64,000 nucleotides of DNA from Scenedesmus sp. PABB004 (GCA_014905635.1 JABVCE010000016.1:620001-684000); one strand, 5' to 3'; shown: positions 2,859-64,000, counted from the stretch's first letter. The notes: generated by a model from the letters alone, not told the origin. Numbers and translations are program-made.

Positions 2859-2950
<92 letters not shown>

Positions 2951-7689: not shown

Positions 7690-7720
<31 letters not shown>

Positions 7721-11194: not shown

Positions 11195-11230
<36 letters not shown>

Positions 11231-14200: not shown

Positions 14201-14456
14201 CGGCGCGGGCGGCGACGTCGCGCTGACCGCGGCGCTGGTCGCGGCCGCGCCGGCGGGGCCCGCCGGCGGCGCCGCTGCGGCGGCGGCTGTGGTTCAGCAG
14301 CAGGGCATGACCGCGCACGCGGGGCGTTACTGTCTGAACCTCATGGGTCCGGTCGACGTGCCCGCCGCCGGCGTCTACGCCCTGCGGCTGGACGTCGGGG
14401 CCGCGGCGGCGGGCGCGTACGTGGACCTGGATGACGTGGAGGTGTACTGCACGTGA
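10633..14456 (+). CDS. Secreted copper-radical oxidase (AA5, glyoxal/galactose oxidase-like) with an extra C-terminal beta-sandwich-like domain
   Basis: Signal peptide (AAALLLVLVALAASPGRAQ). Motifs NLVCGG, RWYPT..LPNG, NWYLGAFVLPTG, VLLPNGHV, IYDP, RTYHATSILTQDG, EVYHPPYL, GVTH and PPAHYMLFLL. The Cys, Tyr, Tyr-His and His catalytic positions all appear present. Confidence 0.9.
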
Positions 14457-23200: not shown

Positions 23201-23816
23201 CGATCGGCACAGGCCGCCGCGCCCACGCCGCCCGGCGGCCGCTGCGCAGGACGCCGACTTCAAGCCCGTGGGCGCCGAGGTGCTGTCCGCGTTCAATGCC
23301 TGGGTGAGCGACGCGCGCGTGGGCGCGCCAGCGGCTGCGGGTCGGCTGCGCCCGCGAGGGCCGGACTGAGACCCCCGGCGCGCCACAACCTGCCGCCCCG
23401 GCCGCACCGCGCCGCGCCGCCGCCAGGTCGCGGGCGGCGCGGGCGGCGCGGACGGGTGGAGCCTGGAGCCGGTGAACCACGAGGGCTGGCGCGTCAACAT
23501 CGACGAGGGCGGCGGCCGCCGCGGCTGGGCGCTGCTGCGGCAGAGCCTGCACGACCCGCTGCTGGTGCTAAACATCGAGAGCGACACCGTGGGCGGTGCG
23601 CGCCGCGCCGGGCTGCTCGCGCCGCGCGGGCTGCTCGCGCCGTTCCACGGCGGGCTGCTGCCTTGCCCCCGCCCCCGGCGGCGCCCCACGTGGCCACCGC
23701 CGCCGCCGCCGCGCCGCGCAGGCGTGAGCACGATTCGCAAGCACCTGCTCGCCTTCCTGCACGGCAGCGGCGCCGCAGGCAAGCTGGACCTGGGCGGCCT
23801 CGCCGAGGCGCACTGA
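20263..23816 (+). CDS. Alpha-D-phosphohexomutase (phosphomannomutase/phosphoglucomutase family), probably plastid-targeted
   Basis: LQNGSDVRG, catalytic IMLTASHMP, DAGNGSGG, PDGTFPNHIPNPE, metal loop FDTDVDRS, FKRGYKNVI, ETSGHGA, YLDDG and LRQSLHDP. At least 5 introns have GC donors. Confidence 0.95.
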
Positions 23817-24982: not shown

Positions 24983-26855
24983 ATGGAGCGGCTGCAGCAG
25001 CGCGACCGCGCCGCGAAGCGCGCTGCCGAGGAGGCCGCGGCCAAGCAGACGATGGTTGACAACATCCTGCAGATGGCGGCGGCGGTGCAGGCGCAGGGGG
25101 CACCCATGCCCCGGGTGGACTTCCAGGACCTCCTGAAGCAGCGCCGCGGCGGTGCCAAGCGCCCGAAGCACCTGTCGGTGGGCCGCCGCGCCGCGTCCTG
25201 CGCGCTGCGCCCCGAGCCGCCGCCGCCCCGTCACGGATGCCCGCCGCCGCCGCGGCCGCGCTCGCTCACGGCCGCCCCTTCCCCCCCGCTCGCCGCGCGC
25301 AGGGGCAGCAGGCGGCGCCCGGCCCCGCGCCCCCGCTCGCGGCGCGCAGGCGCAGCAGGCGGCGCCCGGCCCCGCGCCGCCCGCGCCGGCCGCGGCCGCC
25401 GGTGCCGCGCCCATGGAGGTGGAGCGCATCGACGGCCAGGTGCGGGTTGCGCGCGGGGCGAGAGGGGGCCGGGGCGGCTGCTGCGCCCGGTGCCCTTCCC
25501 CGCGCCGCCGCGCCGCGCCGCCCCCCGCGCCGCACGTCACCGCCGCCCGCCCGCCCCCGCCCGCCCGCCTGCCCACAGCCGGCGCCGCCGCTGCCGGCCG
25601 CCGCCGGCGCAGCGCTCGTCGCGCCCGCGCCCGGCGCCGCCGCGCCGGCCGAGCCCAAGGTGCGACTTGAGCACCGCGACGGTCCCAGGGCGGGCGCGTG
25701 CGGGCTGCGTGCGCTGCTCGCCGCGGCGGCGCCGTCTGCGCCCGGCGACGCCGCCCCGCTGCTGCCGAGCCCGCCCTCCCCTCGCCCCGCCCCCGCCGCC
25801 GCCGGGCCCGCGGCGCAGGCGCGCGCCCCGTCCGCGCCCCTGCGCGTGCGGATACCCATGCACGACGAGGACGACGACGACGACTTCCTGCCGGTGGGCC
25901 GCCGCGCCGCGCGAGCGGCCCCGATCGCCGCGCCGCCGGGTCCAGCCCTGACGCATTCGCGGATGCCCACCGCCGCGCCGCCCCGCCCGCTCGCCGCGCC
26001 GGGCCTCGCGGCCGCCGCGCCGCGCGCGCAGGCGGCGCCCGAGCCCGCGCCCGCGCAGTTCGGCTGCGCCGCGTCTGACGACGAGGAGGAGCCCGCGTCC
26101 GACGACGACGACGAGGAGCGCTCGGTGCGCTCGCGCCTGAGCGCGCCCGAGCGCGCGCCCGCGCGCGCGGCCTCTGCGCGACGCCGCGCGGTCGGCCGCC
26201 GCCACGCACCCTCTCGCGCGCGCCGCGCCGCCGACAGGCGCCCGGCATGCGGCGGCGCAAGGACGCGTGCGGGCTGCCTAGCTGCACCAGCGACATGGCG
26301 GCCACGTACTGCGTCGCCGACAGCGCCGGCGCGCCGCTCAAGGGCCCTGAGCACCTGCGCTGCCCGGACTGCGCCAAGTCGGCGCAGGAGCGCGGCGAGG
26401 TGGTCGTGGGCAGCACCTCGTACGCCTCGCGGCTCTGCCGCGAGGAGGGCTGCTGCGCCACTGCCGTGTTCGGGCCCCCCAACGGCGCCCCTGAGTGCTG
26501 CAAGCGGCACAAGGTGCGCGCCAGGGCGCCGCGCGCCGCGCGCAGCCCTCGCCGGCACGCCGCGCCTGAGCGCGCCCGAGCGCGCGCCCGCGCGCGCGGC
26601 CTCTGCGTGACGCCGCGCGATCGGCCGCCGCCACGCACCCTCTCGCGCGCGCCGCGCTGCCTGCAGGCGCCCGGCATGCGGCGGCGCCGCCACGCGTGCG
26701 GGCTGCCGGGCTGTGAGAGCGACATGGCGGCCAAGCACTACGTCGCCGACAGCGCCGGCGCGCCGCTCAAGGGCCCTGAGCACCTGCGCTGCCCGGACTG
26801 CGCCAAGTCGGCGCAGGAGCGCGGCGAGGGGCAGCCCGGTGAGCGACGACTTTGA
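24983..26855 (+). CDS. Cys-rich protein containing an EsV-1-7-type repeat; 3' end disrupted or chimeric
   Basis: The spliced product contains LCREEGCCATAVFGPPNGAPECCKRHK|APGM, matching the EsV-1-7 pattern C-x3-GC-x4-FG-x6-C-x2-H-K-x2-GM. It also has two CGLPxC...CPDC units. Reading ends shortly after a foreign insert begins at 26827. Confidence 0.65.
26133..26829 (+). repeat. Direct duplication of an intron+exon unit (about 26133-26400 and 26562-26829)
   Basis: Near-identical gcgcctgagcgcgcccgagcgcgcgcccgcg...caccctctcgcgcg...caggcgcccggcatgcggcggcgc...gcccggactgcgccaagtcggcgcaggagcgcggcgagg occurs in both copies. Confidence 0.93.
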
Positions 26856-27065
26856 CGTGCAGCCCTGGGACGGCTCGCCCATCAGCCCCGACGCGTCGCC
26901 GATGAGCCCGGCGCCCATCATCATCTCAGACCTGCACGCCGGCGAGCCGCCGCAGCAGCCGAGCGGCGGCGGCGGCGGCTGGGACGGCGGCGGCTGGCGC
27001 GACGCGCGCCAGCAGCAGCCGCCGCAGCCGTACGACGGCCGCGCCGGCGCCGAGCCCTACCGCTG

Positions 27066-27104
<39 letters not shown>
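26827..27104 (+). repeat. Inverted copy of a coding fragment (32365-32646) of the RS/SRI gene
   Basis: Both places encode GSPVSDDFDVQPWDGSPISPDASPMSPAPIIISDLHAGEPPQQPSGGGGG(G)WDGGGWRDARQQQPPQPYDGRAGAEPYRWQQQ on opposite strands. The visible differences are mainly in GGC and CAG repeat lengths. Confidence 0.96.
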
Positions 27105-31783: not shown

Positions 31784-32363
31784 TCAGGGCGCGCCGCCGC
31801 CGTACTTTGCGACGTAGCCGTCCACGAGCGCCCGGATCTTGAGCCGCCGCGGCTCGTTGAGGTACGCCGCCGCGCCCTCGGCGCCCTCGCCCGGCGCGTC
31901 GGGCGCGCCCGGCGGCGGCAGCCCCGCGAGCACCTTGTCGGTCGCCTTCTTGGCCACCGCCTTGAACGCCTGCGCGGCCGCGGCGCAGAGCGGCCCGCGG
32001 CGGCGGCGCGTGTGGGGACGGGCGGCGCGTCGCCGCGCGCGCTCGTCGCCGCGGCGGGCCTGCCGCTGCACAGCGCGCGGCGCGGCGCGGCGCGCACCTC
32101 GCGCGTGAGCCTGCCGGACTTCCACACCGGCTTGAGCATCTCCTTGATGGCCTCAGTCACAGCCAGGCGCAGCTCGCTGTGGGCCGGCGGCGCGCCGGCG
32201 CCGGCGCCCCCGCCGTGCGGCGCCGCGCCGTCGCCGCCGGGCGCGCCCGGGAGGCCGCCGCCGTGGGGTTGGCCGGGCTGCTGCCCGCCCCAGCCGACGT
32301 CGCGGGCGTACGGGTCCGCGCCCGGCCCGCCCCAGCCGCCGCCGCGTGGCACGCCCCAGGCGC

Positions 32364-32407
<44 letters not shown>

Positions 32408-35171
32408 CGGTAGGGCTCGGCGCCGGCGCGGCCGTCGTACGGCTGCGGCGGCTGCTGCTGGCGCGCGTCGCGCCAGCCGCCGCCGTCCCAGCCGCCGCCG
32501 CCGCCGCCGCTCGGCTGCTGCGGCGGCTCGCCGGCGTGCAGGTCTGAGATGATGATGGGCGCCGGGCTCATCGGCGACGCGTCGGGGCTGATGGGCGAGC
32601 CGTCCCAGGGCTGCACGTCAAAGTCGTCGCTCACCGGGCTGCCCCTGGCGGCGCCCGGCGCGGGCGGCGCCGGCGGTGGCGCCCAGGCGCCGGCGCCGCG
32701 CGCGCCGCGGTCCCACGCGCCGCCGCGGTCCGCGTGGGGCTGCGCGGCCGCCGGCGGACGCGGCAGCTGGGGGGCCTGGTCGGCGCCGTCCAGGGCGTCC
32801 AGGTCGGAGATGAGCGGCGCGCCTGGCGGCGGGCTGCGCGGCAGCGGCGGCTGGCTGCCGGCCTCCCCGCTGCCCTCGCGCTGCTGCGCCTGGAGGCCGT
32901 GGGCGGGGCCCGCGTCGTCGCCCGGCCGCCCGGGCAACCCGCGCCCGCCGCGGGGCTTGGCGGGGCTGCGGCTGCGCGCGCGCCGGCCGCGCACGCCGCC
33001 CCAGGCGGGCGGCGGCGAGTCCGGGGCTGCCGCGCCCCGCGGCGGCGCCGAGCCGTCGTACGTGGGCGACCCGCGGCCGCCGCCGCGCTCCTGCGCCGGC
33101 CCCCCGGGCCAGCCAAAGCCGCCCCGGGCGAGGCCGTAGGGACGGGGCGGCGAGCCGCCGCGGAAGCCTGCGCGTGCGGCGGCGGGGCGGGACGGCGTCA
33201 GCGGAGCTGCGGCGGCCAGTGCACGCAGCAGCAGGCCGGGGACGAGTGCCAGCGTTGCGGCGCCGCCCGCAGCAGCCGCGCACCTGGCGGGCCGGGCCAG
33301 GGACCCTGCCCAGGGCCGCCGCCTGCTGCGGCGCGCTCACGCTCCTTCTCCCGCTCCCGCTCGCGCTCGCGCGCTGACAGCGGCAGCGGCAGCGGCCCGG
33401 GGCCGCGCGGCGGGTGCGGGCCGTCAGGCTCGCCGCCGGGCCAGAGCGGCGAGCGGCTGTGCGTGCCGTCGCGCTCGCCGCGCTCGCGCTCCCTCTCCCG
33501 CTCGCGCTCGCGCGCCGACAGCGGCAGCGGCCCGGGGCCGCCGCCGCCGCCGCCCGGCGGGCCCGCCCAGCCCTCGCGCGCACGCGGGCGCGGCGCCACC
33601 TCGCGGCCGCTCAGCGACGCGGGGCTGCCGTCGTCCCCGCCGCGCGTCGACTTGGCGAGGCTGGCGGTGCGCCAGCCCTGCGGGCCGTACGGCCCAGGCG
33701 ATGCCGAGCCGCTGCCGCCGCCCTCGCCCGCGCCCAGCGCCTCACGCAGCGCGCCCAGCGGCTCGTGCGGTGGCCGCTCCCGCTCGCGGCTGCCGCCGCG
33801 GCGCAGCGGCTCGCGCTCGCCGCCGGGCGGCGGCGGGCCGCCGCCGTCGCGCCGGCTCGCCACCAGGCGCTGCGCGATGCGCACGAGGAAGCCCTGCGGG
33901 TTGCGCAGCCGCGTGGCGCCCCCCAGGGCCTTGCCGAGCTCGTCCAGCGCATACGTGCCCTCGCCCTCGCTCAGGCCCTCCAGCGTGGACACGACCGCGG
34001 CGTCGGGCAGCGGCGGCGCGAGCAGCCCCACGTCGAGCATGAGCTGGAGCTGCCGCTTCACGCCGGGCGCGAGCGCGCTGTCGGCGACCCACGGCGGCAG
34101 CGGCGCGCCGCGCGGCGGCGGCGCGCCGCCGCCGTCGCCGCCGCCCCAGCCGCCGCGCCCGCCGCGCGGGCCGCCAAAGCCGCCGTGCGGGCCCATAGGC
34201 GGGCCGCCGGGGCCCCAGGGGCCCGCCGGCGGGCCGCCCGGCGCGCCGGGCGGGCCAGAGTAAGCGCGGCTGGTGCGGTAGATGGGGCCCGTGTGCGGCG
34301 AGCGGCTGCCGCGCCGGCTGCGCCGCCGCCCGCCGCCGCCGCTGCTGCTGCTGCTGCGCCGCCGCGCGCGGCGGCGCCGGCTGCCCGAGCGGCCGCTGCT
34401 GCTGCGGCTGCGCGAGCTGCTGCTCCGGCTGCGCGAGCTGCGGCGCCGGCTGCGCCCGCGGCTGCGGCTGCGGCTGCGGGACGAGCGGCTGCCCCCGCTC
34501 CTGCGCCGGCGCCTGCTCCTGCTCCTGGTCCGTCCGCGCGACCGGCTGCGGCTTCCGCTGCTGCGGCTCCGGCTGCTGCGCGACCGGCTGCGGCTGCGGC
34601 TGCCGCGGCCGCGGCCGCCGCCGGCCGCGGCGGCCGCGGCGGGCGCGCCGTTGGCCGCAGCTGCTTGCTGCGCCTGCTCCCCCTCGGCCGCGCCGGCCGG
34701 CGGCGGCGCGTCGCCGCCGCCACGAGACTTCTTGGCCGGCTGGCTGGCGCTGCGCCGCCGCGAGCGCCCACGCCGCCCACGGCGGCTGCGGCTGCGGCTG
34801 CGGCTGCGGCTGCGGCCACGGCTGCGGCTGCGGATCGAGCCGCTGCGGCTCCTGCTGCGCCGGCCGCGCCGCAGGCTGCCGCTGGGGCCGCGGGGGCCGT
34901 CGCGCTCGCGCTTGCGCGCCGCGCCGCCGCCCGGCAGCGCGCCCGGGGCGAGCCCCCCGAGCGCGGGGTGCAGCATGCCCGCGAGCGCCGTCGCGGGCGA
35001 GAGCGCCGCCGCGCCAAAGGGCACGCCCACGGGCGGGCCTGCGGCGGCGGCGCCGTTGGCCAGCGCCGCCGCCGCGGCGCGCGCCGCGGCCGCCGCGGCC
35101 GCGATCGACGCCGCCACGTCGGGCGGGCACGGCGGGGCTCCGCCCTCGGGCGCCCTGGGCGCCTCCGCCAT
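31784..35171 (-). CDS. RS-rich nuclear RNA-processing protein with hnRNP-Q-acidic-like helical domain and C-terminal SRI-like (SCAF11/PHRF1-type) domain
   Basis: Long RS tracts. Middle segment DAAVVSTLEGLSEGEGTYALDELG...RLRNPQGFLVRIA. C-terminus LAVTEAIKEMLKPVWKSGRLTRE|AFKAVAKKATDKV...YLNEPRRLKIRALVDGYVAKY. Domain names are assigned from motif recall. Confidence 0.78.
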
Positions 35172-45948: not shown

Positions 45949-46411
45949 GCATCGAGCACCGCGTGGCGCTGGGCGGGCGCGCACGCTGCGCAGGAGCGGC
46001 GGCTGGCGTTCGGTCAAAAAACACATCGCGCTGCGGTTGGCAGGGATTGCCTTGCGCGCGGTGGTCACCGCGGCGGCGCGGGGCGCGGCACGTCAACACA
46101 ACCGCACGAGCCTGCAGGGCGAGGTTGCGCCACCCGCGCGCCGCCTCCCGCGCCCGCCACAGCCGCCGGCCGGTCAGCGCAGCGACACGCAGCGAACGCG
46201 CCCGCCTCGCCCCGCCTGCCCCGCCCCGTTAGGGCGCGCCGCCGCCGTACTTTGCGACGTAGCCGTCCACGAGCGCCCGGATCTTGAGCCACCGCGGCTC
46301 GTTGAGGTACGCCGCCGCGCCCTCGGCGCCCTCGCCCGGCGCGTCGGGCGCGCCCGGCGGCGGCAGCCCCTGCTAGGCACCTTGTCAGTGGCCCTCTTGC
46401 CGCCGCCTCAA
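45949..46411 (-). pseudogene. Direct duplicate of 31504-31966: last exon of the RS/SRI gene plus about 280 bp downstream sequence
   Basis: Near-identical run (…gcgttcggtcaaaaaacacatcgcgctgcggttggca…gtactttgcgacgtagccgtccacgagcgcccggatcttgagcc…). The copy has R>W, TGA>TAA and a scrambled end beyond about 46370. Confidence 0.93.
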
Positions 46412-49380: not shown

Positions 49381-52300
49381 CTACACCTCAAGCCCCGCCA
49401 GCAGCCCGCCCGCGCCCCCGCTCGCGCCCTTGGCCTTGGTCGGCGAGCGCGCCGGAGACGGGCGGCTGGGGCTGCTGGACGCATCGCTGCCGCAGCCCGG
49501 CGCGGGCCACTGGTCCAGCAGCCGCGCGCCGCCGAGGCGCGCCGCCGCGGCCGCCGCGCCGCCGCGCGCCGCGCCCCTGCGCGGCGAGGTGTCCTCGCCG
49601 CCGCCGAGGCTGCCCAGGTCGCTGCTGGGCGCCTTGGAGAAGCCGTCGTCGGGCCGACCGCTGCGGTTGTGGTCGCTCTGCACCGACAGGCTCAGCGCCG
49701 CGCCGCGCGGCAGCGCCGCCAGCGCCGCCTCGCGCGCCGCCGCCGCGCGCGCCGCCGTGACGAGGCCGGCGTTGGCCGCCACGCCCGGCCCCGGCGGCAC
49801 CCGGCCGGCCGCCGCCCCCGCCGCCCCGCCGCCGCCGAGCGCGGCGGGCAGGAGCAGCGGCCGCGGCCGCGGCATGGGCAGCGCGGCGTGGCTCTGGATC
49901 GGCTGCTCGCACGGCGCCAGCCCCGCCCACGGCCGGGCGGCGGGGCCGAACGCGAGGCGCTGCGGCCGCACCGGCACCGCCACGACCGCCGGCTCCGGCG
50001 GCGGCAGCCCCGCCGTGCTGCTGGGCAGGCTGCGCCACTCGCTGCCGCAGACCGACGCCGCGCCGCCGCCGCTCGCGCAGGGCGGCGCCGCCGCGCAGCC
50101 GGGCGCGCTGGGCCGCGCGTCGCGCGCGGCGGCGCCCGCCGCGAGCGCGACGTGGTCCACCGCGTAGCCCCGCACCACCACGCGCTGGCGCCGCGCGCGC
50201 GGCGGCGGCGCAAAGCGCGCGGCGAGGCAGCCGCCGTCGCGCGCGACGCGCTCCGCCTGCCGGGCGGCCGCGGCGAGGCGCCGCAGCAGCGCACCCTGCG
50301 CCGCCGCGGCCGCGGCCGCGGCCGCGGCCTCCTCCGCCTCCTCCTCCTGCCGCCGCCGGCTGCGCGGCTTGGGCGGCGCGACGCCGCCCGCGGCCGCGGG
50401 CGCGATGCCGCCGGGGCCGGCGGCTGCGGGGCGGCCGCCAGCGCCGCCGACGCCGCCGCCGCGGCCTCTGGCGCAGCGCCGGGCCCGCCGCTGCTCGCCT
50501 TGACAGCGTCATACTCCACCCAGTGCGCGATGCGGCTGCTGGCGTCGAGCAGCGCGTGCCGCCGCGCCTGGCCGCTCAGCGCGAGCAGCACCGCGCTCGC
50601 GAGCAGCGGGCCGTCGCCGTAGGCGCCGCCCGCGATGCGGCCGCTGCCCGCGGCCGGCGGCTGCGGCGCCGCGCCCGCCGCGAGCCGCGCCCGCAGCGGC
50701 GACGCCGACCGCGAGCCGGCCGGGCCCTGGCCGACGCTCGCGCTGCTCGCCTCCGCCGCCAGGCCGCCCGTGCGCACGGGCTGCTCGCCCGCCGCGGCCG
50801 CGGCGTCGCCGCCGGCGGCGCCCGCCACCGCCTTGGCCAGGCGCCGCAGCGGCGAGCTCTGCGGGGTGGCCGCCGCGCTGCCGGCCGGCGCGGCTGCGTG
50901 CGGCGCGGCCGGCTCGGCCGTGCCGGCGCCGGGTGCCGCGGCCGGCGCCTGCGCGGAGGCCACCTCGAGCAGCAGCGCAAACTTGAGCGCCGACAGTACC
51001 ACCGCGAGCTGCGACGCGCGCTCGCCGCCCCAGCCGGCGCGGCGCTCGACGGCCGGCAGCTTGAGCTTGCGCGTCGTGGGGCAGCCCGGCCCGGCGCCGC
51101 TGCCGTCGTCCGCGCCGTCCTCGCTGCTGCCGCTGCTGTCGTCGTCACTGCCGGTGCCACTGGCGGGCGCCGGCGCGGGCGAGCGCAGCTGCGCGTGCAC
51201 CGAAACCTGCGCGCGCGAGCGGGCGGCGCGTGAGCTCCATGCAGTCGCCGCTGCCGCACGCGCACACCCACGCGCCCGCAGTGCGTGCAGCGCCGCCACG
51301 CGCGCACCTTCGAGACCTCGCCCTTGACCTCGGACGGCGAGGGCTCCGCCGACGCCTGCGGCGACTGGCCCAGCAGCACCGCCGGCGGGCCGCCGCGCTG
51401 GCTGTTGGGCGCCGCCGCTTCGGTCGGCTCGGCCGCCGCCGCGGGCTGCTCCGCCGCCACGCCGCGCGCGCCGCGCGCCGTGGGCGGGCCCGCGGCGAGG
51501 CTGGCGCGGCTGGAGAGCGTGCCCTCGGGGTTGGGCCCGCCCTCCGAGGGCCGTGGCGAGAACAGGTTCCTGCGTGAGCGCGCGCGGCAGCCACACCATC
51601 AGTTGGCGCGGTGGCGGTGCGCCGCTCGCAGCCCCCCCCCCCGCCCCCTGCTCGCCTCGCCCCGCGCGCGCGCCGCACCCGCTCAGCAGCGCGAGCGAGG
51701 TGTCGCGGTTCTGCAGCTGGTTGCGCAGCACCTCCAGCTCGCTGCGCAGCGCGTCGTTCTCGTCCTTCACGCGCACCAGCTCCACGCAGGTCGAGTCAAA
51801 GAGCAGGTCGTTCACGCTCGGCGCCGGGTAGCCGCCCGCCGCCTCGCCAGCCCCCGCCGCCGCGGCCGGCTCGGCGGGCTCCGCGCCGCCGCCGGAGGAC
51901 ACCTGCCCCAGGCGGCTCGCCGGCTGGTGCCGGCGCGCGGGGCTGACGCAGGGGCTGCTGCGCCCGCTGCGCCGCCCCTCCGCGGCGTCGGAGTCCGGCT
52001 CGCTCGCCGCGTCGCCGCTGTCGCTGCCGCCGCCAGGCGCGGCGCCCGGCTTGCTGTGCTGCGGGCTGCGCGGGCTGCTGGCCGCCGAGCCCGCCGCCTT
52101 GGCCCGCGTGTCCGCCGCGTCGCCCGAGAGCGCGAGCGCGGGCACGAGCGCGCTCAGGCCGCCGCGGTGCGAGCCCGGCGGCGCGCCGCCGGTGGTGTCG
52201 CTGCGCGCCGAGGAAATGGCGTCCGAGACCTCGCCCACCAGCTCGGCCAGGCCGTAGCGCGCGCTGCCGCCGGCGCTGCCGCCGCCGCCTCCGCCCGACT

Positions 52301-55300
52301 CGGGCGGCCCGTCCGGCGGCGCGCCGCCGTCGAGCAGCGCCCGATACGCCAGCTTCGCGTGCGCGGGCGCGACGCCGCCAGCGGGCAGCTGCGCCGCCGC
52401 CGCGCCGGCCGCCTCCCACGGGTCACCGCCGCTGCGCGACGCCGCGCCGCCGGCGAGGGGCGAGCTCGGCACCGACGCGGCGGCGATGGAGGCCGCCTCC
52501 GCCACGGCCTGCAGGTCCTGCGAGGTGAGCAGCTCCGGCCGCGTGGCCGCGGCGGCCGCGGCCGGTTCGCGCTCGCCATCGGGCGACGCGGCGAGGCTGT
52601 CCAGCTGCAGCGCCGGCGGCGTCGGCAGCGCGTCGTCGTACGAGACGTGCGGCGCCGCGCCCCGCGGGGCGGTGGCCAGGCGCTCCGGCGTCACGCCCGC
52701 ACGCGGCGGCCCGCTGGCGCCCGCCTCGCCGCGCGGCGCGGGCGCGGGCGCGTCGGCCGCGTCGGCCGCCTCCGCGGCCGCCGCGCCCGGCGACGTGACG
52801 CGGATGGCTGGCAGCTGCCGCGGCGCGCCGTCGCCGGCGCCGCCCGCTCCGCCGCCCGGCTGCAGCGCGTGCCGCTCCTCTCCGCGCTCCGCGGCATGCT
52901 CGCCGGGCGAGCCGCCAGCAAAGAGCCCGTTGTCCCGCACGCCGATGCCCGCCACCTCGGGCGCGGCGCGCACCTCGCCCTGCAGGCTGCACCGCGCGCC
53001 GGCGGCGCCGCCGCCGCCGCTCGCGCTGCCGCTCAGCTGCGCCGCCGCCGCCGCGAGGCCCTCGGCCAGCGCGGCCGGGGCGGGCGCGGGCCGCGCGGCC
53101 GCGGCCGCCACCGCGTCGGCCTCGTCCGCCGCCTCCTCCTCGCTCGCGGCCGCCGCCTCCTCCCCCTCGCCGCGCAGCGCGCGCTGCAGCCCCGTGGCCC
53201 AGCCGCGCACGCGCGCCATGGCGGGCCCCAGGCACTCGCGCGCCTGCGTCGCCTGCCACGCGCGGAGCTCCGCCGTCTCGGTCAGGAGCAGGGCGGGGCC
53301 GCGGACCTTGTCGGCGTCCGGGCCAAGCACGAGGCGCTGGAAGTGCGACGCCGCCCAAGCGCGGTGCCGTGCGAGCTCGCCGCCGGGCTTGGCCAGGCCC
53401 TCGTCCCACTCGTGGCCGGCCGCGAGCGCCGCGTCGCGCGCCTCCTGCTCCTGCACCAGCTCCTTGGCCACCTGGCGGGCGGCGCGTCGGCGGCGCGCGC
53501 GCTGGGCGGCGCGCGCTCGGCGGCGCGCGCTGGCGGCGGCGGACCGGCCCCCAGCCCAAGCAAGACTCCAGCCCAAGTGCGTCGCACCTGCAGATCATGC
53601 AGGCGGCGCTGCCGCTCGCTGGGCACGAGCTGCTCAACCGCCGGCATCAGCAACCCCGGCGCGCAGGGGCGCGCGCCGACCAGGTGCGGCGGCGGCAGCC
53701 CGCCGCCGCCCTCGTAGCACTCGGCCGCCGCCGCCGCGTCGCTGAGCGGGCGGCCGACGACGCCGAGCAGCGGCGCGGCGGCCATGAACGCGGGCGTCGC
53801 CGCGGCGCCCTGCTGCACGCCGGCCAGGCCGAGCAGCGCGAGCGCGTTGCCGATGCGCTGCAGCGCCGCCAGCGCCGCGGCGCAGGCCTCGCCGTCGGAC
53901 AGCGCGCCGGAGAGCTGCTCCGTATAGAACTGAAGCACGCCGCTGGCGGTGTGGCAGCGCTCCGCGGGCGGCAGCTGCAGCAGGCCACGCGGCAGCGCGG
54001 CCTGGAGCTCCAGCAGCTCCTCCAGCAGGACCGCCTGGCGGCGGGCGGGCAGAGGGAGAGGGCGAGCTCGGGGCCGGCCGCCGGCATGGTCTGCCCACGG
54101 CGCGCGCGCGCAGCGGCTTGCCCTCCCTCCTCCACCCTCCCCCTTACCCTCTCCTCCTGCACCCCACACGCACCTGCTCGCACTCGAGCTTGTCCAGCAG
54201 CCCCTCCAGCAGGTGCTGCTGCCCCGCGGGGCCCGCCAGCGCGTCGAGCGCGCCGAGGTGCTGCCTGCCGATAAAGCCGCGCAGCGGGCGCAGCGCGCCC
54301 GACACCTCGGCCAGCACGCCCGGCGGCGCGGCCGCGGCGGCCCACGCGGCCGCCTCGGCGTCGGGCGCCGGCGGCAGCAGCACGCGCGCCTCGCTGTCGT
54401 ACGCCGCGCCGTCGAGCAGCGCGAGCAGGCCCGACACGGTGGCGCGCGCGGTCGCGCTGCCGCAGCCCCCCGCGCCCGGCGGCGCCGCGTCGGCGGCGCC
54501 CCAGAGCTCGTGCCAGCTCTCGGGCAGGGCGGCGTACTGGCAGATGAGCGCGTGCGCGCGCGCCAGGATGGCGCCGTGCGCGGCCGCCTCGACCAGCGCG
54601 CCCGGCGGCAGCGCCCTGCGCAGCGCGGGACGGGCGTGCGCGCGCGCGTGGGCGCAGGGCATGGCGGCGGCGGCGCCCGCGCTGGCGGGGCGCGCGGGGC
54701 GGGCGGCGCGCGCACCTGCAGCGCGCCACGAGCGTTGCGGCGTCCTTGCGCAGCAGGGCGAGCAGCCCCGCGAGCAGCCACTGGCGCAGGTCCACAAGCG
54801 ACGACCCCGCGTCGTCCACCGTCGCCTGCAGCGCCGCCGCCTGCTGCGCGGCCACGAGCTGCTTGGCGAGCTTGAGCTGCTCCAGGCGCTGCATGATCGG
54901 CGTCTGCCCCGCCTCCTCGCCGCCGGGGCCGTCGCCGGGCTCGCCGCCGGCGGCGGCGCGGCGCCGCGCGCGGCCGCGCGCCTCGCGCGCCGCCTTGCGC
55001 GGGCTGCGCCGCGGCGACTTGGCGGAGCTGCCGGCCGCGCCGCGCGCAGCGGGCGAGGCCGCCTGGTCGCCGCCGCCCTCCGCCGCCTCGCCCTCCTCCG
55101 CCGCCGCCGCCGCCGCCTCGGCGGCCGCCTCGGCGGCCTGCTCCGCCAGCAGCGCCTGCTCCGCCGCCTGCAGCGCCTCCAGGGCCTGCTCCAGCTCCTG
55201 CACCGCCGCCGCCTGCCGCGCCGCCGCCGCGGAGGGGCCCGCGACGCCGGCGCCGGCGGGCTCGCCCGCCGGTGCGCCGCCGCCGCCGCCGGCGCTGGGC

Positions 55301-58300
55301 AGGCCGCGCAGCAGCACGGCGCCGGGCTGCGCCGCGAGCTCCGCCTCGGCCGCGCGCGCCACGTCAGCGTAGTCGCCCTGCAGCACCAGGGGGCAGGGCT
55401 CGCGCAGCAGCGCGTCGAGGTACACCGACTGCACCGGCGCGAGCGGCGGCGCGCGGACCGACGCGAGCAGCTCCCACGTGACCGTCTGGTGCGCGGCCAG
55501 GCGCTGCGCGGCGGCGCGGCGCGGGGCGGGGGTCGGGCGGCGCGGCGCGGCGCGCGCGGCAGCCCGCGCCGTGCGCGCAGCCCCCCCCCCCCCGCCCCCG
55601 CATGGCGCCGGGCGCCGCACCTTGAAGTGCTCATACGCCGCCGGCACCACCGCCTGCACGTACGCGCGCACGCACGCCTCCTCCTGTGCGCGCAGCAGCG
55701 GCAGCCCCCGCGCCAGGCGGCCGTGCGCCGCGAGCAGCGCGCGCGCGTCCCAGAGCACGTGCAGCGCCAGCAGCGGCAGCTCCGCGGGCAGGCGCGTGAG
55801 CTGGCCCGTGCAGGCGGCCACGAGCGCCGCGGGGAAGCTGCAGAGCAGCTCGGCGGGCCGGCCGCCGCCGCCGCCGCGCGGCCGCGCGACCGCGACCTCG
55901 ACCGCGCCGTCGCACGCGGGCTCGCCGCCGCCGTCGCCCGGCTCGGGGCCCGCGGGCGCGCCGCCGCCGCGGCCGGCCGCCGCGAGCGCCTCGCACTGCT
56001 CCTCAAACAGCAGGTTGTACAGCACGCGCGTCGCCGCGGGCGCCTCGCTCTCCACGAGCGCCGCGAGCTTCGCCGGGCTCAGGCCCGGCTGCTGCGGCGC
56101 GCCGCCCTTGCCCGGCGGCGCCGCGCCGCCGCCGGGCCCGGGCCCGGCGCCGCCGCGGCGGCGCGGCGGCAGCTGCGCCTCGCCTGCAAAGTAGGGCGCG
56201 TACGTGCGGCTGAGCCACAGGCCCGACACGTCGCCCGCGGCCGCGAGCTGGGCCGGGTAGTCGAGCGCCAGCTGCAGGCGCTGCACCGCGCGGACCATGG
56301 CCTTGACCTGGCGCAGCGGGCGCGCGATGCTCGCGTCGGGCTTGGCTCCGCCGCCGCCGGCCGCCGCCGCGGCGGCCGCCTGGAGCTGCTTCATGAGGTG
56401 TCGCTTCGTCTCGGCCTTGATCTCATGGAGGAGCTGCTCCAGCAGCACGCGCAGCTGCGCGAGGCACGGCAGCGGCGGCGGACACTCGAGCGCCGCCGCG
56501 GGGCCCTCCGCCACGAGCACGCCTGCGGCGCGGCGCGGCGCGGCGCGGGTGAGCGGTCAGGCATGCACGCGGGGCCGGCCTGTGGCGGCAGCGCGAGCGC
56601 GGCGCAGCGCGCGCACCCTCGAGCGTCTGCCGGCGCTCCACCATGGCGCGCTTGAGCTTGGCCTTGAGGCTCAACCCCTTTGGGCCCCTGGACGCGGCCG
56701 CGCCGGCGCCTGCGGCGGCGGCGGGCGGGCGGCGGCGCGCGCCGCGCTCACGCGGCGGCCGGGCGGCCGGCGCGGCGCGCGCGCGGCGCGCACGCCCCGC
56801 GCAGCCGCGCCGCTCACCCTGCGCCGCTGCGGCCGCCTGCTCGCGCGCAGCGGAGCGGAAGCCCATGACCCGGCTCATCAGCCCCGCCATGCGCCCCGGC
56901 TTGGCCGGCTGCTGGTCGCCCGCGTCGCCGCGCGCGCGCGCGCTCGTGGGCGCGGCGTCCACGTCGGCCCCGCCCGGCGGCTCTTCCCCGTCGACCGGTC
57001 CGGCGCCCGGCTGCGAGCGCGCCGCGGCGCCGCCGTCCCCCGCCGCCGCTGGCGCGCGGCGCGGCGCCGCGCCGCGCGCGCCCGCGGCGTCGCCGGCCTC
57101 GGCGGCCGCCGCGGCCGCCGCCGCGGCGTCGGCCGCCGCGCGCGTGGAGAGCGCCTCGTGGTGCTGGAGGAGGCTCTTGAAGCGGAAGAACTGGTAGCGC
57201 CGCGCGGTGCTGGGCGAGACCGCGGACAGGCCCTCGACCGCGGCGAGCTCGCCGTCGACGTCGACCGCGATGCCGCGCGCGACCGCGGCCGCCGCGACCT
57301 CGGCCAGCTCCACGGCGGTCGGGTCGGTCAGGTCGGCAAGGCTCAGCCCCGGCGGCAGCGCGAGCGCGCCGGCACCGCCGCCGCCGCCGGCGGCGCCCGG
57401 CGGCGCGCCGGCGTCGGCCGCGCCGGCGGCCGCGAGGCGGCTGGGGCCGCGGCCGCTGGCCGTCGCGATCCTGCTCTCAAACGCCGCTGCCGCGGCCGCG
57501 ACGCCCGAGCTGGGCGACGAGCCGCCGCTGCCGCCGCCGCCGCGCGCGTCGGCCGGCGGCGGCGACTCCCAGGGCAGGTCGGGCGGGCGCTCAAACGCGC
57601 CGAGACTGCCCGCGCTGCTGACGCCGCTGGCCTCCGCGCCGAGCTCGTCCTCGCTCACCTTGGTGCGCGAGCGCAGCAGCAGGCGCTCCGCGCCGCTCGC
57701 GCTGCGGCTGGCGGCGCGGCTGACGGCGGCGCCGCCGCCGCCGCCCGCCGCCGCGACGGCCGCCGCGGCCGCGGCCTCGGCCGCCGTCGCCGCCGCCGCC
57801 GCCTCGGCGACCGCCTCTGCGGCAGCGAGCTGCTCGTACTCGCCCTCGGCCTCCGACAGCATCGCCTCGAGCGCCGCGAGCGCGGCCGGCGCGGCGCTCA
57901 GCTCCGGCGCGGGGCTCGCCGCGGGCTTGCCGCGCGCCCTGCCCCGCACGCTGCCGACCAGGCCCTTGCCCCAGCGCGGCTTGCGGCCGTCCCCGGCGGC
58001 CGCGGCCGCGGGCGCGGCCTCGCCGTCCCGCGGCTGGTCGCCGCCCGCCGCGCCCTCGGGCTGCTGGCTGGGGTCGCCCTCCGGCTGCCGCTCCGGCTGC
58101 AGCTCGCCGGGCTGGCCGCGCCCCTGGCCCTGCGCGCCGCCGCGCCGCCAGCGCGAGGTGAAGCTCTCAAAGCCCTCCGCGATGGGCCCGGCAAAGCCGA
58201 GCTCGTCGCCGGCGCACGCGCCCGTCGGCGACGCGGGCGCGGCGTCGCCGGCGAGCGACGTCGCGCAGCTGCCCGCGCAGCCCTCGTCGCGCAGCTCGAC

Positions 58301-60683
58301 GTGCTGCCCCTGCAGCGCGGCGTAGATGCAGCGCAGGAGCGCCTGCACGCGCCGGTGCCGCGGGTACAGCCGCGCGAGCGCGGGCAGCGATGACGCCGCA
58401 AACTCGTGCAGCGTCTGCACCGCGTGCACCTGCAGCAGCGGCGCCAGCCAGCCCGCGCTGTCGCACAGCAGCCCGGACAGGCCCTTCACCGCGCCCAGGG
58501 CGTCCATGAAAGGCACGGCGTCGTTGGCGCGCAGCGCGCACCTGCGCGCGCCGGCCAGCGCGGCGGCGTGAGCGGCGCCGGCGGCGAGCGCGGGGCGCGC
58601 GGGCGGGCGCGGGCGGGCGGGGCGGGCGCGGGCGGGCGAGGGGGCGGGGCGCACCGCTCGCCGCCGTTGCCCCGCGCCAGGCTGAGCCGCCACGCGTCCA
58701 GCTCCAGCAGCGACGCGCGGGCGGCCGAGACGAACGCAACGCTGCCCACCACCAGCTGCTCGGCGCCAGCAAACGCCTGCGAAGCAGCGGCGGCGGGCAG
58801 GGAGCCAGGGCGGGCGCGGCCGTCGGGCGCTGCAGCGCACGCCGCGCAGCGTGCGCGCCGGCCGCCGCGCGCTCGCGCCGCGACCCGCCGCGCCACGCAC
58901 GTCGCCCGCCACGTCACGCTCCACGGCCACCGCCTGCTTGACCTCCAGCGCGAGGCGCGACAGCAGGTCGCACAGCTCGTCGTGCGCGGTCAGCAGCGGC
59001 TGCACGGCCGGGGCCAGGCTGTACGCCTGCTGCAGCTTCGCCGCCAGCTGCCCGTCCAGCTGCCCGGGGCCCGCCGGCAGCTTCAGCCTGGCGCCGGCAC
59101 GGGCGGCACGGGCGGCGTGAGCGGGCGCCGGCGCGCTGCTGCAGCTGGCGGCGCCCGCGCCCGCGCCCACGCCCGCGAGCGCGCGCACTTGCGCGCCGCC
59201 GCCGCGTCCGCGAGCTGCGCGCAGTCGCCCAGCCCCGCCGCGAGGTTGGACGGCATGTCTGCCCAGCCCGGCACGACCGGCTTGGCCGCGAGCAGCGCGA
59301 GGCAGCGCTCCAGGGCCTTGGCGCTGAGCGCCTCGGGCTTGCCCGCCGCCACGGCCTGCACGCACGGCGCGGGCGGCGGCGCGCGCTGCCGTCAGCCCTG
59401 CTCCCCGGTCCCCGGCCCCTCGCGGCCGCGCGCGCCGGGGCGCGCCGCACCTCGGCGCGGCTGCTGCTGGTGAAGTAGAGCCGCAGCAGCAGCGGCAGCG
59501 CGCGCGCGGCAGAGTGCTGCTCCTGCACGCACGCCAGGGTGTTGACCTCGATCGCCTCGGCCGTGGCCGACCCCGCCGCCTCCGCCAGGCCCGCCTTGCC
59601 CGCCGCCGCGACGACGGCCTGGCAGTGCTGCGCGAGCGCCGCCAGCACGGCGTCGAGGCCGGGCAGGCCCCCGAGCTCGGCCTCGAGGCGCGAGAGGAAG
59701 GAGGCCTCGCCGCCGTCGCCGTCGCCGCCGTCGCCGCCGCGCTCGGGCGCCTGCCCCGCGCTCGCCGCGAGCAGGTCCAGCAGGTGCAGCCGCTCCAGCA
59801 GCGCACAGAAGGCGCTGCCGCGCGGCGGGGCGGGGCGGCGCGCGCGTGGCTCACGCGCGGCACCTCCGCCGGCTGCGCGCGTGCCGCGCACGCTGCGCGC
59901 GCCCGCGCAAGCCGCCGTGCGCACCTCGTGTGCTGCGACGAGACCAGCAGCAGCGGCTGCCGCGCGCCCGCCGCCTGCGCGAGCGAGAGGTGCAGCGCGG
60001 CGCCGCCCTCCTCGAAGAGCGTCGCCAGGTCCCGCCGCAGCGGCCCGTCCGGCGCACGGCCCGCCACGCTGACCACCAGCAGCAGCCCCTCCACGCGCTC
60101 CGCGTACGCCTGTGCGCACCACGCGGGCGGGAGGCGGACGGTGTGGGGGGACGGCGGCCGCGCGGCCACGCGACAGCGGCTCGCCGCCGCGCGCACCTGC
60201 AGCGCCTCCAGCAGCGGGCAGAGCTGGCCCACGCGCGCGGCGCGCGGTACACTGAAGCGCGGCGGCATCGGGAACAGGCCCGCCGGGCAGACCTGCGAGG
60301 GGGGTCGGTTAAAGATGGGCGCATCGAGCCGACCGTTGTGGGCGCAGCGCCGCCCGCACCACTTGCGCCGCCTCCATGGAGGCGGACAACGCGCGCGAGC
60401 CTGGGAGCGGCGTCAGCGCTCAGGGCATCGCAACGAGCGAGCTTGGGCGTCGGCAGCTGCTGAAAAGGCTCGCAGCACTCGCCCCGCGCCGCCCGACGGA
60501 CGGAGCTGTGAGGGCGTGTCCGCGCGGCGGCCAGCGCGCTACCTTTCGCTGCGGCGACGACGGCGCGGCGGCGACAGCTGGTTCTGGCCGCCTGCGTAAC
60601 ACTGCGCGGCGACGCAGGCGCGCCGAGACGCGCGGCGCCCGCACGCCCAGCCACTCACTCAAGCAGCCACAGCACCGCAGCAT
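49381..60683 (-). CDS. Highly divergent, expanded CYFIP/SRA1/PIR121 homologue (WAVE/SCAR regulatory complex subunit)
   Basis: Colinear CYFIP-like blocks: FMDALGAVKGL..LHEF, AQLRVLLEQL, LAAAGDVSGLW, SFPAALV, AYEHFK, YLDALLRE..VLQG, LVDLRQ, RGFIGRQHL, LPRGLLQLP..SGVLQFYTEQL..ALQRIGNALAL, VLSALKF and YGDGPLLASAVLLALSGQARRHALLD. The first exon MLRCCGC… (60683-60543) splices in frame to 60292. Confidence 0.8.
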
Positions 60684-60929: not shown

Positions 60930-61984
60930 TCACGCGACCCAGTCGCCGTCGTGCGCCGGGTCGGCGGCGGCGCCGGCGCCGGCGCCGGGCACGCCCAGGA
61001 TGCTGGCGACCGCGGGCTCGTGGTAGAGCCGATAGATGGGCAGCCCTCCGCCCGTGAAGCTGCTGCGCGGCGTGCCGTCGGGCGGCGACGCGTCGCCGCG
61101 CTCCGCTGCGAGGTGCGTGACGAGGCGCTGCAGCGCCCAGACCGACAGCCCCGCGAGGTTGGCCGGCGACGCCGCGGAGCGCCGGTCGAGCGCGACAGCG
61201 CGCTGGATGCACGTGTCGCACACCGCGTCGAGCCCCGCCGCGTCGGTGAGCTGCAGCACGCGCCACACGAAGCGCGTGCCGCCCTCCGCCATGTCCAGCA
61301 GACACATGTGCGTCTCCACAAACGCGCCTGCGCCGTGGGCGCGGCGTGGGGGCGTGGGCGGGCGTGTGGGCACATGGGTCGGCCGGCGGCGCGCGGCGGC
61401 GAGGCCCGCCCCGCCGGCTGGGCGCGCGCCGGCGCCGGCCGGCGCGGCTGCGCACCCGCGCGTGCCAGGATCGCCGGCATGTCCAGCTTGGCGCCGAGCG
61501 TGAGCAGCACCTCCAGGTTGTCCCAGCTGACCTGCGCGCGCCCGGCGCGTCGTCAGCGGCCGGCCGCGGCCGGCCGGCTGCGCGCTCGGCTCCCGACCGC
61601 GCGCGCCGCGCCGCGCACTGAGGGCGGCGGGATGAGCGGGTACATGAAGGCCGCCACCTGCAGCCACGCCTCGACGCTCGTCCCTGGCATCGCCACGCGC
61701 CGGCGGCCGCGCTGCTGCTGCGCGCCGCCGCCGCCGCCGCCGCCGCCGCCGGGCCCCGGCGCGCCGGCGCGCTGCTGCTGCGGCCCGCCGATCTGGCCCT
61801 CCGCCGTCTCCGTCTCCAGCGCCATGGCGAGGACACCGGACCAGAGCGCGAGCACGGAGCGGTGCGCCGGCACCAGCTCCTCGCTGCCCCCAAACACGAG
61901 GTCCACGTCGCTCCCACGCGCCATGATGGTCGCGAGCTCGCCGGCCGCCTGGAGCCCCCTCGCGGGCTTGCCCTCGTCCGGCAT
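60930..61984 (-). CDS. BTB/POZ-domain protein
   Basis: SDVDLVF…VPAHRSVLALWSGVL…AWLQVAAFMYP | VSWDNLEVLLTLGAKLDMPAIL. Three exons; the start may lie further upstream (about 62142). Confidence 0.82.
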
Positions 61985-62349
61985 CGCGAGCTCCGCCTCC
62001 GCCGGCGCGCGGCGGAGGCAGGGCCGCGGGGATCGGAGCGGGCGCGCCGAGACTGGGCGGACGCGGTGGATGGCCGGAGGCCGAGCGTGAGGCGGATGAC
62101 GGCGGCGCAGGGCTCAGCAGCAGCGGCGGTCACCGAGCGCATGGGGATGCCGGGGGGCTCAGCAGCGGGCGCAAACGCATCAGCAGTCACCTCAGGCACC
62201 GTCCACGCAACACGGCGCGGTACCGCTGCGGCCCACGGCGCCGACCGCCGCGCCGCGCCGGGCCCCGCGCGCGCACCCTCGCGTGCCCCAGCAGGCCCGC
62301 CGCCCAGGTCTTGCCGCCGCCCCAGCGCCCCACCTCCCAGCCGCGCTCG

Positions 62350-63668
62350 TCACGAAAAGTTGACGCAGGACTCGTAGGTCGGCACCTGCGCCGCGGCGGC
62401 GCCGGCGGGTCGGCCGGCCGCTCGCCCCGCACCGCGCACACCCCGCCGCGCCGAATCTCTCGCTGCGCTGCGCTGCTGCTGCTGCTGCTGCGCGCCGGCC
62501 GCCGCACCATGTATTTGATGTTGATGAACGCGTCCTCGCCGCCCCGCTGCTCGAGCAGCGCGAGCGTGTCGGCGATGAGCTCGCCGAGGCAGTCGTACTG
62601 CTGCTGCCCGTAGTCGATCCCGTCGCCGAGGTTCTTGTTCCTGCGAGCGCGCGCCGCGGCGCGCGGCGCAGCGTCGGCCGCCCCGCGGCCGCCGCGCGCC
62701 GGGCCCGGCCCGGCCCGCCGGCCCGCCGGGCCAGCGGCGCCGCCGCCGGTCAACGCCGGCGCCGCCGCGCGGCGGCCCGCGCGCGCGCGGGCACGGCCGC
62801 GCCGCGCACCTGGTAATGTAGAGGTTGAAGATCGGCAGCAGCTGGCGGTAGTAGGGCACGAGCGCCTGCCCCACCAGCTCGCCGCTCAGCACCAGCTTCT
62901 GCAGCAGCTGCGCGCGGCGGACGCGCGCGGCCGGCCGCGCGGCGGGCGCGGGGGACGCGGCGTCGGCGCAGGCGCCGCGCGCGGGGGGCCCACCCATCCC
63001 TGCCTCCCTCCCCGCTGGACCAGGCCCGGGCCCGCCGCGCGGGCCGCGCGCGCGCGCGCCTGCAGGCAGACGGCGATGACCGCGGGGTCGCGCGTGTTGA
63101 GCGCCGTCTTGATTGGGATGATGAGCTGAGGGATGACCGGCAGCACGCGCGACCCGCCTGCGCGGACGCGCACGCCGAAGGCGGCGGGCCAAGGGCCAGC
63201 CCGGCGGCGGCGGCGGCGGCGGCGGCGGCGCGGCGCGTCAGCGCGGCGCGGAGGAGCTGGGCCGCCGCCGCCGCCGAGCGCCGCCGCCGCGTGCGGCAGC
63301 CGCTGCCGCGCGGCCCCGCCGCCTCCCGCCGCCGCCACGGCCCGGCCGCCTCGCCCGGCCGCCCGGCCGCCCCTCCTGGCGCCGGCGGCTGCCCCGCACC
63401 TGCTGCGAGCAGGTCCTCCACGCCCTTGATGGCGAGGAAGCGGCAGGGGTCGGATGCCTCGCGGATGCCGTCGAAGAAGATGGGCAGGTAGTGGTGGTAG
63501 TCGAGCTTGTCAAGGTCAACCTGCGCGTGCGTGTGTGTGGGTGGGTGGGTGTGGCGTGCGTGTGCTGTGTGTGCGTGCGTGCGTGGCCCTTGTGCACAGG
63601 GGCACGCGCGAGCTGGGCCGCGCGAGCCGGGGCTGCGGCGGCGACCGCGTGCGCGTGCGCGTGCGCGT

Positions 63669-63715
<47 letters not shown>

Positions 63716-64000
63716 TGCGCGGGCGCGGGCGCGCGCCTTCCACTTGATCGCGTTCTTGAACGACTTGTGGTCCACCGCGATGGGCAGGTCGCCGCGCTCG
63801 TAGAAGCGCCGAAAGGCGGTGTTGGGCGGGTTGGCGCGCGGCTCGAGCGCGCCCGCGCGCGGCGGGCTCGGCGGCGCCTGCTGCGCGGCCTTGGGCGACC
63901 CTGCGGCGCAGCCGCCGGCCCCGCCCTTGCCGGGCGAAGAGGGGCTGGCGGCACGCGCCGCCGCCGCGCGCGCGGCGTCGCCCTCGCCCCGCAGCAGGAA
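62350..64000 (-). CDS. PACRG: Parkin co-regulated gene protein (axonemal inner-junction protein); 5' end outside the window
   Basis: [69 protein letters not shown] and [19 protein letters not shown]. Confidence 0.97.

Follow-up and report, generated by a model that had tools for sequence, protein, structure and literature searches.

SRA1 (CYFIP) and NAP1 (NCKAP1) are generally regarded as components of the WAVE complex, a machine of five subunits that relays a Rac signal to Arp2/3. Among green algae, PMC3298513 describes Chlamydomonas and Volvox as having Arp2/3, neither WASH nor WAVE, and no recognised activator, and Chlorella and Micromonas as having lost Arp2/3; in the part examined, a preprint on Chlamydomonas Arp2/3 makes no mention of WAVE, SCAR or WASP (10.1101/2020.11.24.396002). 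Here we analysed a stretch of 64,000 nucleotides (nt) from Scenedesmus sp. PABB004 (GCA_014905635.1 JABVCE010000016.1:620001-684000), hereafter the window, in which a gene on the minus strand, from position 60683 to 49381, encodes a giant chlorophyte orthologue of CYFIP/SRA1. The gene is real and its family known, and its size alone is typical of its lineage; what makes it notable is that SRA1 and NAP1 have both been kept in a genome that seems to have lost their known input and output.

The closest described system is human CYFIP1/Sra1 (1,253 amino acids, aa; PDB 3P8C, 4N78 and 7USC-7USE; PF05994 and PF07159), with which the algal protein shares ordered FragX_IP (PF05994) blocks and, as far as modelling indicates, a helical core fold. 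It differs in being 2.5 times longer, its insertions and tail together making up about 2,100 aa, in having no detectable PF07159, in the loss of Tyr923 and variability of Tyr967, and in a genome where neither Rho nor Arp2/3 was found. The likeness to the human WAVE complex as a whole lies in the NAP1 gene of this alga, a partner also shared with the plant PIR121/SRA1 of SCAR/WAVE; the two proteins presumably belong to one green-lineage orthologue group, as judged without direct plant comparison, whereas ARP2/3 was not found in this alga. As of 2013 land plants had no known subunit function that did not depend on SCAR and ARP2/3, according to PMC3689024, which also describes the SWIP and strumpellin subunits of WASH as structurally analogous large helical proteins; neither Pfam nor fold searches supported a WASH affiliation here. 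Elsewhere, Arp2/3-independent activity of the WAVE complex, requiring proline-rich domains, has been described (10.1101/2022.05.14.491902), and the legend of a supplementary figure (1B, 10.1101/164905) mentions incomplete SCAR complexes in some eukaryotes, which could reduce the novelty of the present case. Full-text literature searches returned no paper on a chlorophyte CYFIP, although Veltman and Insall 2010 may cover algal SCAR-complex subunits, and the available portions of PMC9616901, PMC6393967, PMC7536088, PMC13765934, PMC5461030 and PMC6491811 hold nothing on algal SRA1.

A giant CYFIP/SRA1 orthologue

The window corresponds to positions 620001-684000 of contig C9 in the assembly searched throughout this work (G000; 40 Mb, 80 contigs, completeness not established), and its G+C content is about 80%. 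A previous reading of the window, made from the sequence alone (the sequence-only reading), had proposed some 11 kb of minus-strand exons encoding a cryptic CYFIP homologue more than twice the normal length. These exons form a single gene of 18 coding blocks ending in a TAG at 49381, with a translation of about 3,160 aa in which an X marks a frame switch. On the minus strand, the blocks run 60683-60659 and 60601-60543 (both uncertain), 60292-60197, 60109-59925, 59814-59451, 59355-59189, 59087-58901, 58776-58655, 58541-56818, 56709-56617, 56522-55621, 55503-54716, 54615-54174, 54034-53588, 53471-51679, 51569-51308 and 51206-49381, this last stretch containing the switch. Introns 3-16 are all of GT-AG type, 87-139 nt long, with GTGCG-type donors and CAG acceptors, and in exons 3-18, read in the model frame, third-position G+C (GC3) is 0.93-0.99. 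When a parser was trained on these exons, it likewise returned 14 introns and one frame switch.

Two pieces of the gene matched the Pfam family FragX_IP, collinearly and as the only family for each, both below the 23.3-bit cut-off: exon 14 (E 6.5e-4, model 619-696) and a C-terminal block with a GDGP motif (50499..50630, minus strand; E 4.1e-4 when trimmed, model 814-851). The latter is 61% identical to its counterpart in the metagenome locus L024, which itself matches with E 3.4e-5. The other 11 of the 13 window pieces scanned gave no FragX_IP or CYRIA-B match. A search of 1.84 billion representatives with exon 14 yielded 17 relatives, 41-67% identical, in 13 of which FragX_IP was the sole Pfam family (above cut-off in five); in the core blocks, identity across 18 relatives is 41-75%. 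No relatives were found in viral or prokaryote contigs, and no WASH-7 or Strumpellin Pfam domain was detected in any window exon or relative.

Further support comes from a hypothetical protein of Scenedesmus sp. NREL 46B-D3 (COO60DRAFT_220743, 1,830 aa; hereafter P0018), the only named protein among the 161 candidates of a targeted search, whose public model is partial and lacks both ends. Automatically tagged PF05994, it matches FragX_IP above the cut-off (E 2e-14, 52.9 bits), likewise gives no WASH-7 or Strumpellin match, and is collinear with our gene model over aa 414-2051, thereby spanning exons 9-15 and corroborating junctions 9/10 to 14/15. It shares insertions 1 and 2 (see below) and differs in its Gln-rich stretches and in carrying Tyr at the position equivalent to Tyr967. 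The middle core blocks (aa 1027-1122 and 1234-1353; 55369..56465, minus strand), between which lies a loop of about 110 aa rich in Gly, are 51-72% identical to it. Further downstream, Pfam, the PDB alignments and the fold of P0018 converge on the best-supported core (53588..54809, minus strand), in which aa ~1541-1810 correspond to human CYFIP1 ~796-1035 and span the Rac D site and the Tyr923 position of the WIRS pocket. A further conserved block (aa 1907-1960; 53195..53354, minus strand), directly preceding insertion 3, is 42-75% identical to the algal relatives P0004, P0011, P0016, P0018 and L024.

Structural comparisons point the same way. Human CYFIP1 was the top PDB sequence match of two relatives (P0013 and P0018) and of an alignment (A2), all weakly (E 0.08-0.23); single window pieces and another alignment (A1) gave nothing meaningful against PDB sequences. 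When 281 aa of the P0018 core were modelled with AlphaFold from a 14-row alignment (pLDDT 67.7), the five best Foldseek matches of the model were all to chain A of WAVE-complex structures (probability 0.96-1.00, E 0.04-0.19), and among 48,161 chains compared with VIA-align, 3P8C_A (residues 796-1096) was the only one with Z>=8 (Z 8.3, modest for a helical model; root-mean-square deviation 5.2, 201 aligned residues). In the ESM Atlas, which we regard as a source of leads only, the CYFIP cluster ranked third for the middle blocks (0.76), and the relative P0003 drew unrelated helical families; folding P0003 from its sequence alone gave a poor model (pLDDT 42.9) with meaningless Foldseek matches. 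Each of these lines is modest alone, but all agree, and together they confirm the gene as a chlorophyte CYFIP/SRA1 orthologue.

Several claims of the sequence-only reading can thus be judged. The first motif it quoted, SGVLQFYTEQL…LQRIGNA, aligns, through P0013 and P0018, to human CYFIP1 ~970-1003. At least ten CYFIP-like blocks had been counted in the correct order; those equivalent to CYFIP1 ~796-1096 and the last block are borne out, the rest being without support from any tool. The region is not fragmented as had been stated, since one frame is kept throughout apart from a single switch that had gone unnoticed. Several unrelated genes, which that reading had considered as an outcome, are rejected: P0018 bridges exons 9-15, and in L024 the exon-14 block and the last block lie on one contig. 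A FragX_IP search of the whole genome returned no match and missed even this gene, and so counts only against a second canonical copy.

At the 5' end, exons 1 and 2 (60543..60683, minus strand), which supply the proposed MLRCCGC start, are weak as coding sequence (-6.0 and -2.1 bits when read in the frame of the model), and alternative starts exist. S-acylation of the N-terminus, suggested from this motif, is therefore unsupported and was set aside. Towards the 3' end, the apparent 1-base frame switch (50414..50431, minus strand) has coding-like sequence on both sides: the 152 nt at 50498-50347 score +29.8 bits as coding when one switch is allowed, against at most +1.4 in the 14 real introns, which also served as the training set. 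A frame switch near 50420 caused by assembly error is the likely explanation, the alternatives being a real lesion or a GC-AG intron at 50498-50347; the latter was rejected as first choice because the stretch is coding-like, even though GC donors are apparently used in the NAP1 gene. Across the SRA1 and NAP1 genes the parser counted 3 switches in 13,367 coding nt, compared with 1 across ten other genes totalling 12,338 nt, a difference that is not significant (p 0.34), and assembly error is again the simpler reading, with decay in this strain as the alternative. An armadillo-repeat-like gene in the window (~2080-4130, minus strand) also carries one apparent frame switch and was used as an assembly-error control.

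Insertions and their conserved islands

By the boundaries drawn here, about two thirds of the protein (~2,100 of 3,160 aa) is insertion or tail. The three insertions anticipated by the sequence-only reading are present, at ~58300-56470, 55370-54810 and 53195-51020. Insertion 1 (56466..58306, minus strand; ~545 aa), rich in Ala, Gly, Pro and Ser, occupies the same site in P0018 (~690 aa) and contains short islands conserved with that protein at aa 718-727, 833-868 and 928-1003. Insertion 2 (54810..55368, minus strand; ~190 aa) also shares its site and approximate length with P0018 (anchors 1067/1265 against 1348/1544). It had been described as splitting a normally contiguous VQLLG-RSIDL motif; the insertion itself holds, being common to P0018, and the identity of the motif is covered by no tool alignment. 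Insertion 3 (51020..53194, minus strand; ~655 aa), of low complexity, has same-site counterparts in P0004, P0011, P0016 and two metagenome loci, L023 and L024, which are two of 380 candidate stretches. Besides the exon-14 block and this insertion, the single contig of L024 holds the last CYFIP block and a tail of low complexity. Our gene also ends in such a tail, of about 270 aa (49381..50196, minus strand).

Two segments of insertion 3 are conserved. An island of the type PW...LP.G...KL.Y.AL (52334..52424, minus strand) recurs in P0004, P0011 and P0016, with none of 300 shuffles reaching the score in each, and in L024 (6 of 300). The coiled coil noticed earlier, predicted from the sequence pattern at aa 2422-2465 (51680..51809, minus strand), is likewise conserved as a segment in P0004 and P0016 (0 of 300 shuffles) and in the L024 exon (1 of 300); it was not found in P0011 (249 of 300), which may end earlier. 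From profile offsets we estimate that insertion 3 falls between the equivalents of CYFIP1 ~1035 and ~1150, the stretch that holds Glu1084.

Since insertions lie at the same places in other algae and contain conserved islands, the giant form is lineage-wide and not a one-off. The surprise of a one-off is accordingly removed. The orthologue was already auto-tagged FragX_IP, albeit under the name of hypothetical protein. The filler itself varies, being Ala/Gly-rich here and Gln-rich elsewhere, and because it differs while sites and islands stay, the pattern suggests that the insertions are floppy linkers bearing selected motifs.

NAP1, Rac inputs and Arp2/3 outputs

The search for NAP1/NCKAP1 proposed in the sequence-only reading produced a match above cut-off to Nckap1 on contig C3 (E 2.4e-7 in the genome search, 8.3e-13 with the gene). 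The NAP1/NCKAP1-like gene (loci L002/L003; G000:C3:904278-910104, plus strand) comprises 15 exons and encodes ~1,357 aa, compared with 1,119 positions in the model. Two of its introns, those following exons 6 and 12, appear to be of GC-AG type, and the frame switches twice, at ~907841 and 909758, one of the switches lying in a GC dinucleotide run. Because NAP1 is of near-normal size, the swelling is specific to SRA1. With NAP1 encoded in the same genome, the earlier suggestion of a remodelled WAVE-complex subunit gains support.

On the output side, none of Arp2, Arp3, ARPC2, ARPC3 and ARPC4 was found by exon-by-exon searching of this one assembly, in which actin, other ARPs (nuclear ones) and the small control family profilin were all found. 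The actin-family search gave 17 matches in five genes. One is actin, and one is ARP6 by its best PDB matches; an ARP5-like gene had ARP5 seventh among near-tied PDB matches; a third divergent gene had only actins among its 60 best PDB matches, and we take it to be ARP7 by its motifs. The remaining gene we presume to be ARP4-like, again by motifs. Neither Arp2 nor Arp3 appeared among the 60 best PDB matches of the three divergent genes checked, and a single P-loop pattern for the first phosphate loop, designed to fit actin, Arp2 and Arp3 alike, matched only actin. As for activators, a WH2 search gave a single candidate (L059; G000:C1:1339381-1339449, minus strand) with four or five thymosin-beta/WH2-like repeats, in which no acidic tail of the VCA type was seen. 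Genome searches with Abi_HHR (without a positive control) and Strumpellin gave no candidates and are uninformative.

On the input side, a Ras-family search gave 36 matches, of which 30 were translated and the other six lie in the same genes by position; no Rho motif occurs among the 30, which we take to be Rab, Ran, Miro or Rab-like. The known Sra1 sites are, in PMC6264382, the Rac A site (Cys179, Arg190), the Rac D site (Tyr967, Gly971) and the WIRS pocket (Tyr923, Glu1084). Their positions were counted along 3P8C alignments into a 14-row alignment (A3), with no canonical plant sequence as yardstick. At the Tyr923 position this protein has Pro; nine of the 14 rows cover the position, and all nine have Pro, Asp, Gly or Ala, never Tyr. 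At the Tyr967 position this protein has Cys, and the 13 rows that cover it vary (Tyr in four, Cys in five, His in two and Arg in two). Gly971 is largely retained, its alignment in this protein being ambiguous by one residue. The loss of Tyr923 and the variability of Tyr967 would fit a loss of the usual inputs.

The expected position of the CYRIA-B/DUF1394 Rac A site and of the start of FragX_IP is an ordered, hydrophobic-rich N-terminal region (aa 29-481; 58307..60292, minus strand), which from aa 414 onward is 57% identical to P0018. PF07159 (CYRIA-B/DUF1394) had no match in exons 3-8, each scanned singly and not as a spliced domain. By eye, the N-terminal 400 aa appear to be homologous to the human CYFIP N-terminus, but with a Gly/Asp linker (aa ~141-158) presumably in place of the Rac A-site helices.

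Some minor observations concern the same gene families. The L059 repeat protein might be an actin-monomer buffer. Only one conventional actin was found, and nothing resembling the additional, divergent actin that Chlamydomonas is reported to have. Besides profilin itself, a weak profilin-like match (L058; G000:C24:970517-970753, plus strand; E 6.5e-4) lies within a long open frame. The Rab1-like (C8:501358-501840) and ARP7-like (C14:431334-432278) genes are apparently intronless in a genome that is otherwise intron-dense.

Possible roles of the SRA1-NAP1 pair

We favour, with a probability of roughly one half, a SRA1-NAP1 scaffold uncoupled from Rac and Arp2/3, in which the motifs of the insertions and the predicted coiled coil act as new partner-binding sites. 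As both proteins form the large platform of the WAVE complex and both are retained, their dimer would have been kept, SRA1 binding the NAP1 encoded elsewhere in the genome as it does in the known complex. Deprived of Rac input and Arp2/3 output, such a dimer would organise other partners, probably at a membrane, through recruitment by the insertion motifs and the coiled coil; its work would most likely be related to actin or trafficking, by an Arp2/3-free route and without nucleation of branched actin. Because insertion 3 falls in the stretch holding the WIRS residue Glu1084, its coiled coil may sit on the face that normally takes membrane-receptor ligands. More tentatively, core chlorophytes as a group may have kept SRA1 and NAP1 after losing Rac/ROP and SCAR (and, in this lineage, Arp2/3 too), with the coiled coil and motifs of SRA1 replacing the ABI/BRK1/SCAR bundle and the receptor inputs. 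The loss of Arp2/3 in Chlorella and Micromonas and the Arp2/3-independent activity cited above offer precedents for the uncoupled scaffold. The whole protein has no run of four or more prolines, so that the proline-rich route is not supplied in cis and a poly-proline mechanism in cis is rejected, and any activity of that type would need a partner.

Several points weigh against an uncoupled scaffold. The absences were established in a single assembly, searched exon by exon, and since the same kind of search, with FragX_IP, missed the giant SRA1 itself, divergent subunits can be missed; the searches with ARPC2, ARPC4 and ARPC3 gave no candidates, and the search tool itself rated these blanks uninformative. 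For SCAR and BRK1 no profile search was made, the WH2 search being the only proxy. No Pfam or PDB match was obtained for the N-terminal ~400 aa (exons 3-8 scanned singly), and three frame switches occur across the two genes. Long low-complexity insertions are common in such algal proteins, and most of the inserted residues may be functionless.

If the searches have overlooked that much, the protein could be the SRA1 of a complete but divergent WAVE complex, with unrecognised SCAR, ABI and BRK1, that still activates an overlooked Arp2/3. NAP1 kept at near-normal size would suit such a complex, as would a genome search that misses divergent genes, and in Chlamydomonas Arp2/3 is functional (10.1101/2020.11.24.396002) while no WASP-family gene was found there or in Volvox, both of which have Arp2/3 (PMC3298513). 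By extension, in relatives that possess Arp2/3, Chlamydomonas among them, the protein would belong to the missing activator. This would, however, require five separate Arp2/3 genes to have escaped searches that returned actin, four other ARPs and profilin, and the sole WH2 candidate is the thymosin-like repeat protein lacking a visible acidic tail; we consider it unlikely, though the most serious competitor. The framing of the locus around Chlamydomonas in the sequence-only reading does not fit: the only named relative is from Scenedesmus and, unlike Chlamydomonas, this genome has no detected Arp2/3 subunit, so that the protein is not simply the missing Arp2/3 activator here.

The one switch in SRA1 and two in NAP1, together with the non-conserved Rac and WIRS residues, might instead mark both genes as relics under relaxed selection after the loss of Arp2/3, the insertions being drift and the switches real lesions. 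We find this doubtful, given core blocks 41-75% identical across 18 relatives, conserved islands within the insertions, GC3 still at 0.93-0.99, a switch in an unrelated gene too, and the dinucleotide run at one of the NAP1 switches. Animal CYFIP1 takes part in translational control with eIF4E and FMRP, and a role of this sort outside the NAP1 complex would agree with the apparent lack of actin-side inputs and outputs and with the SCAR-independent subunit roles noted for other systems in PMC3689024; as it leaves the retention of NAP1 unexplained, we rate it slightly lower still. Least probable, and largely refuted, are a paralogue from the WASH complex (either SWIP or strumpellin) and a set of unrelated genes at this locus. 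The ESM Atlas did place a strumpellin cluster first (0.77) for exons 11-12, and WASH and WAVE subunits are structurally alike (PMC3689024), but Pfam, PDB sequence and fold searches all favour CYFIP, and the continuity of P0018 and of the L024 contig speaks against several genes.

Should the uncoupled scaffold be correct, a WAVE platform without WAVE would expose a function of the two large subunits that is independent of actin branching, and the lineage would isolate these other functions of SRA1 and NAP1 in algae amenable to culture and mutation. With a profile derived from the divergent sequences described here, Chlamydomonas and Volvox could also be probed for a hidden SRA1-NAP1 pair and its binding partners.

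Turning to the neighbourhood, a BTB/POZ-like gene recognised by eye and without Pfam support (60930-62020, minus strand) has its stop only some 250 nt away from the start proposed for CYFIP; upstream of it lies what we take, by likeness, to be a PACRG-like gene (62480-63860, minus strand). Three other genes on the plus strand are presumably Notchless-like with WD40 repeats (6270-8675), glyoxal-oxidase-like (10660-14450) and phosphomannomutase-like (20520-23650), also by likeness, and look ordinary. Finally, the window contains near-identical duplicated coding pieces, an inverted pair at 26815-27100 (plus strand) and 32314-32660 (minus strand) and a second pair at 31793-31906 and 46238-46351 (both minus strand), which represent either local segmental duplication or assembly repeats.

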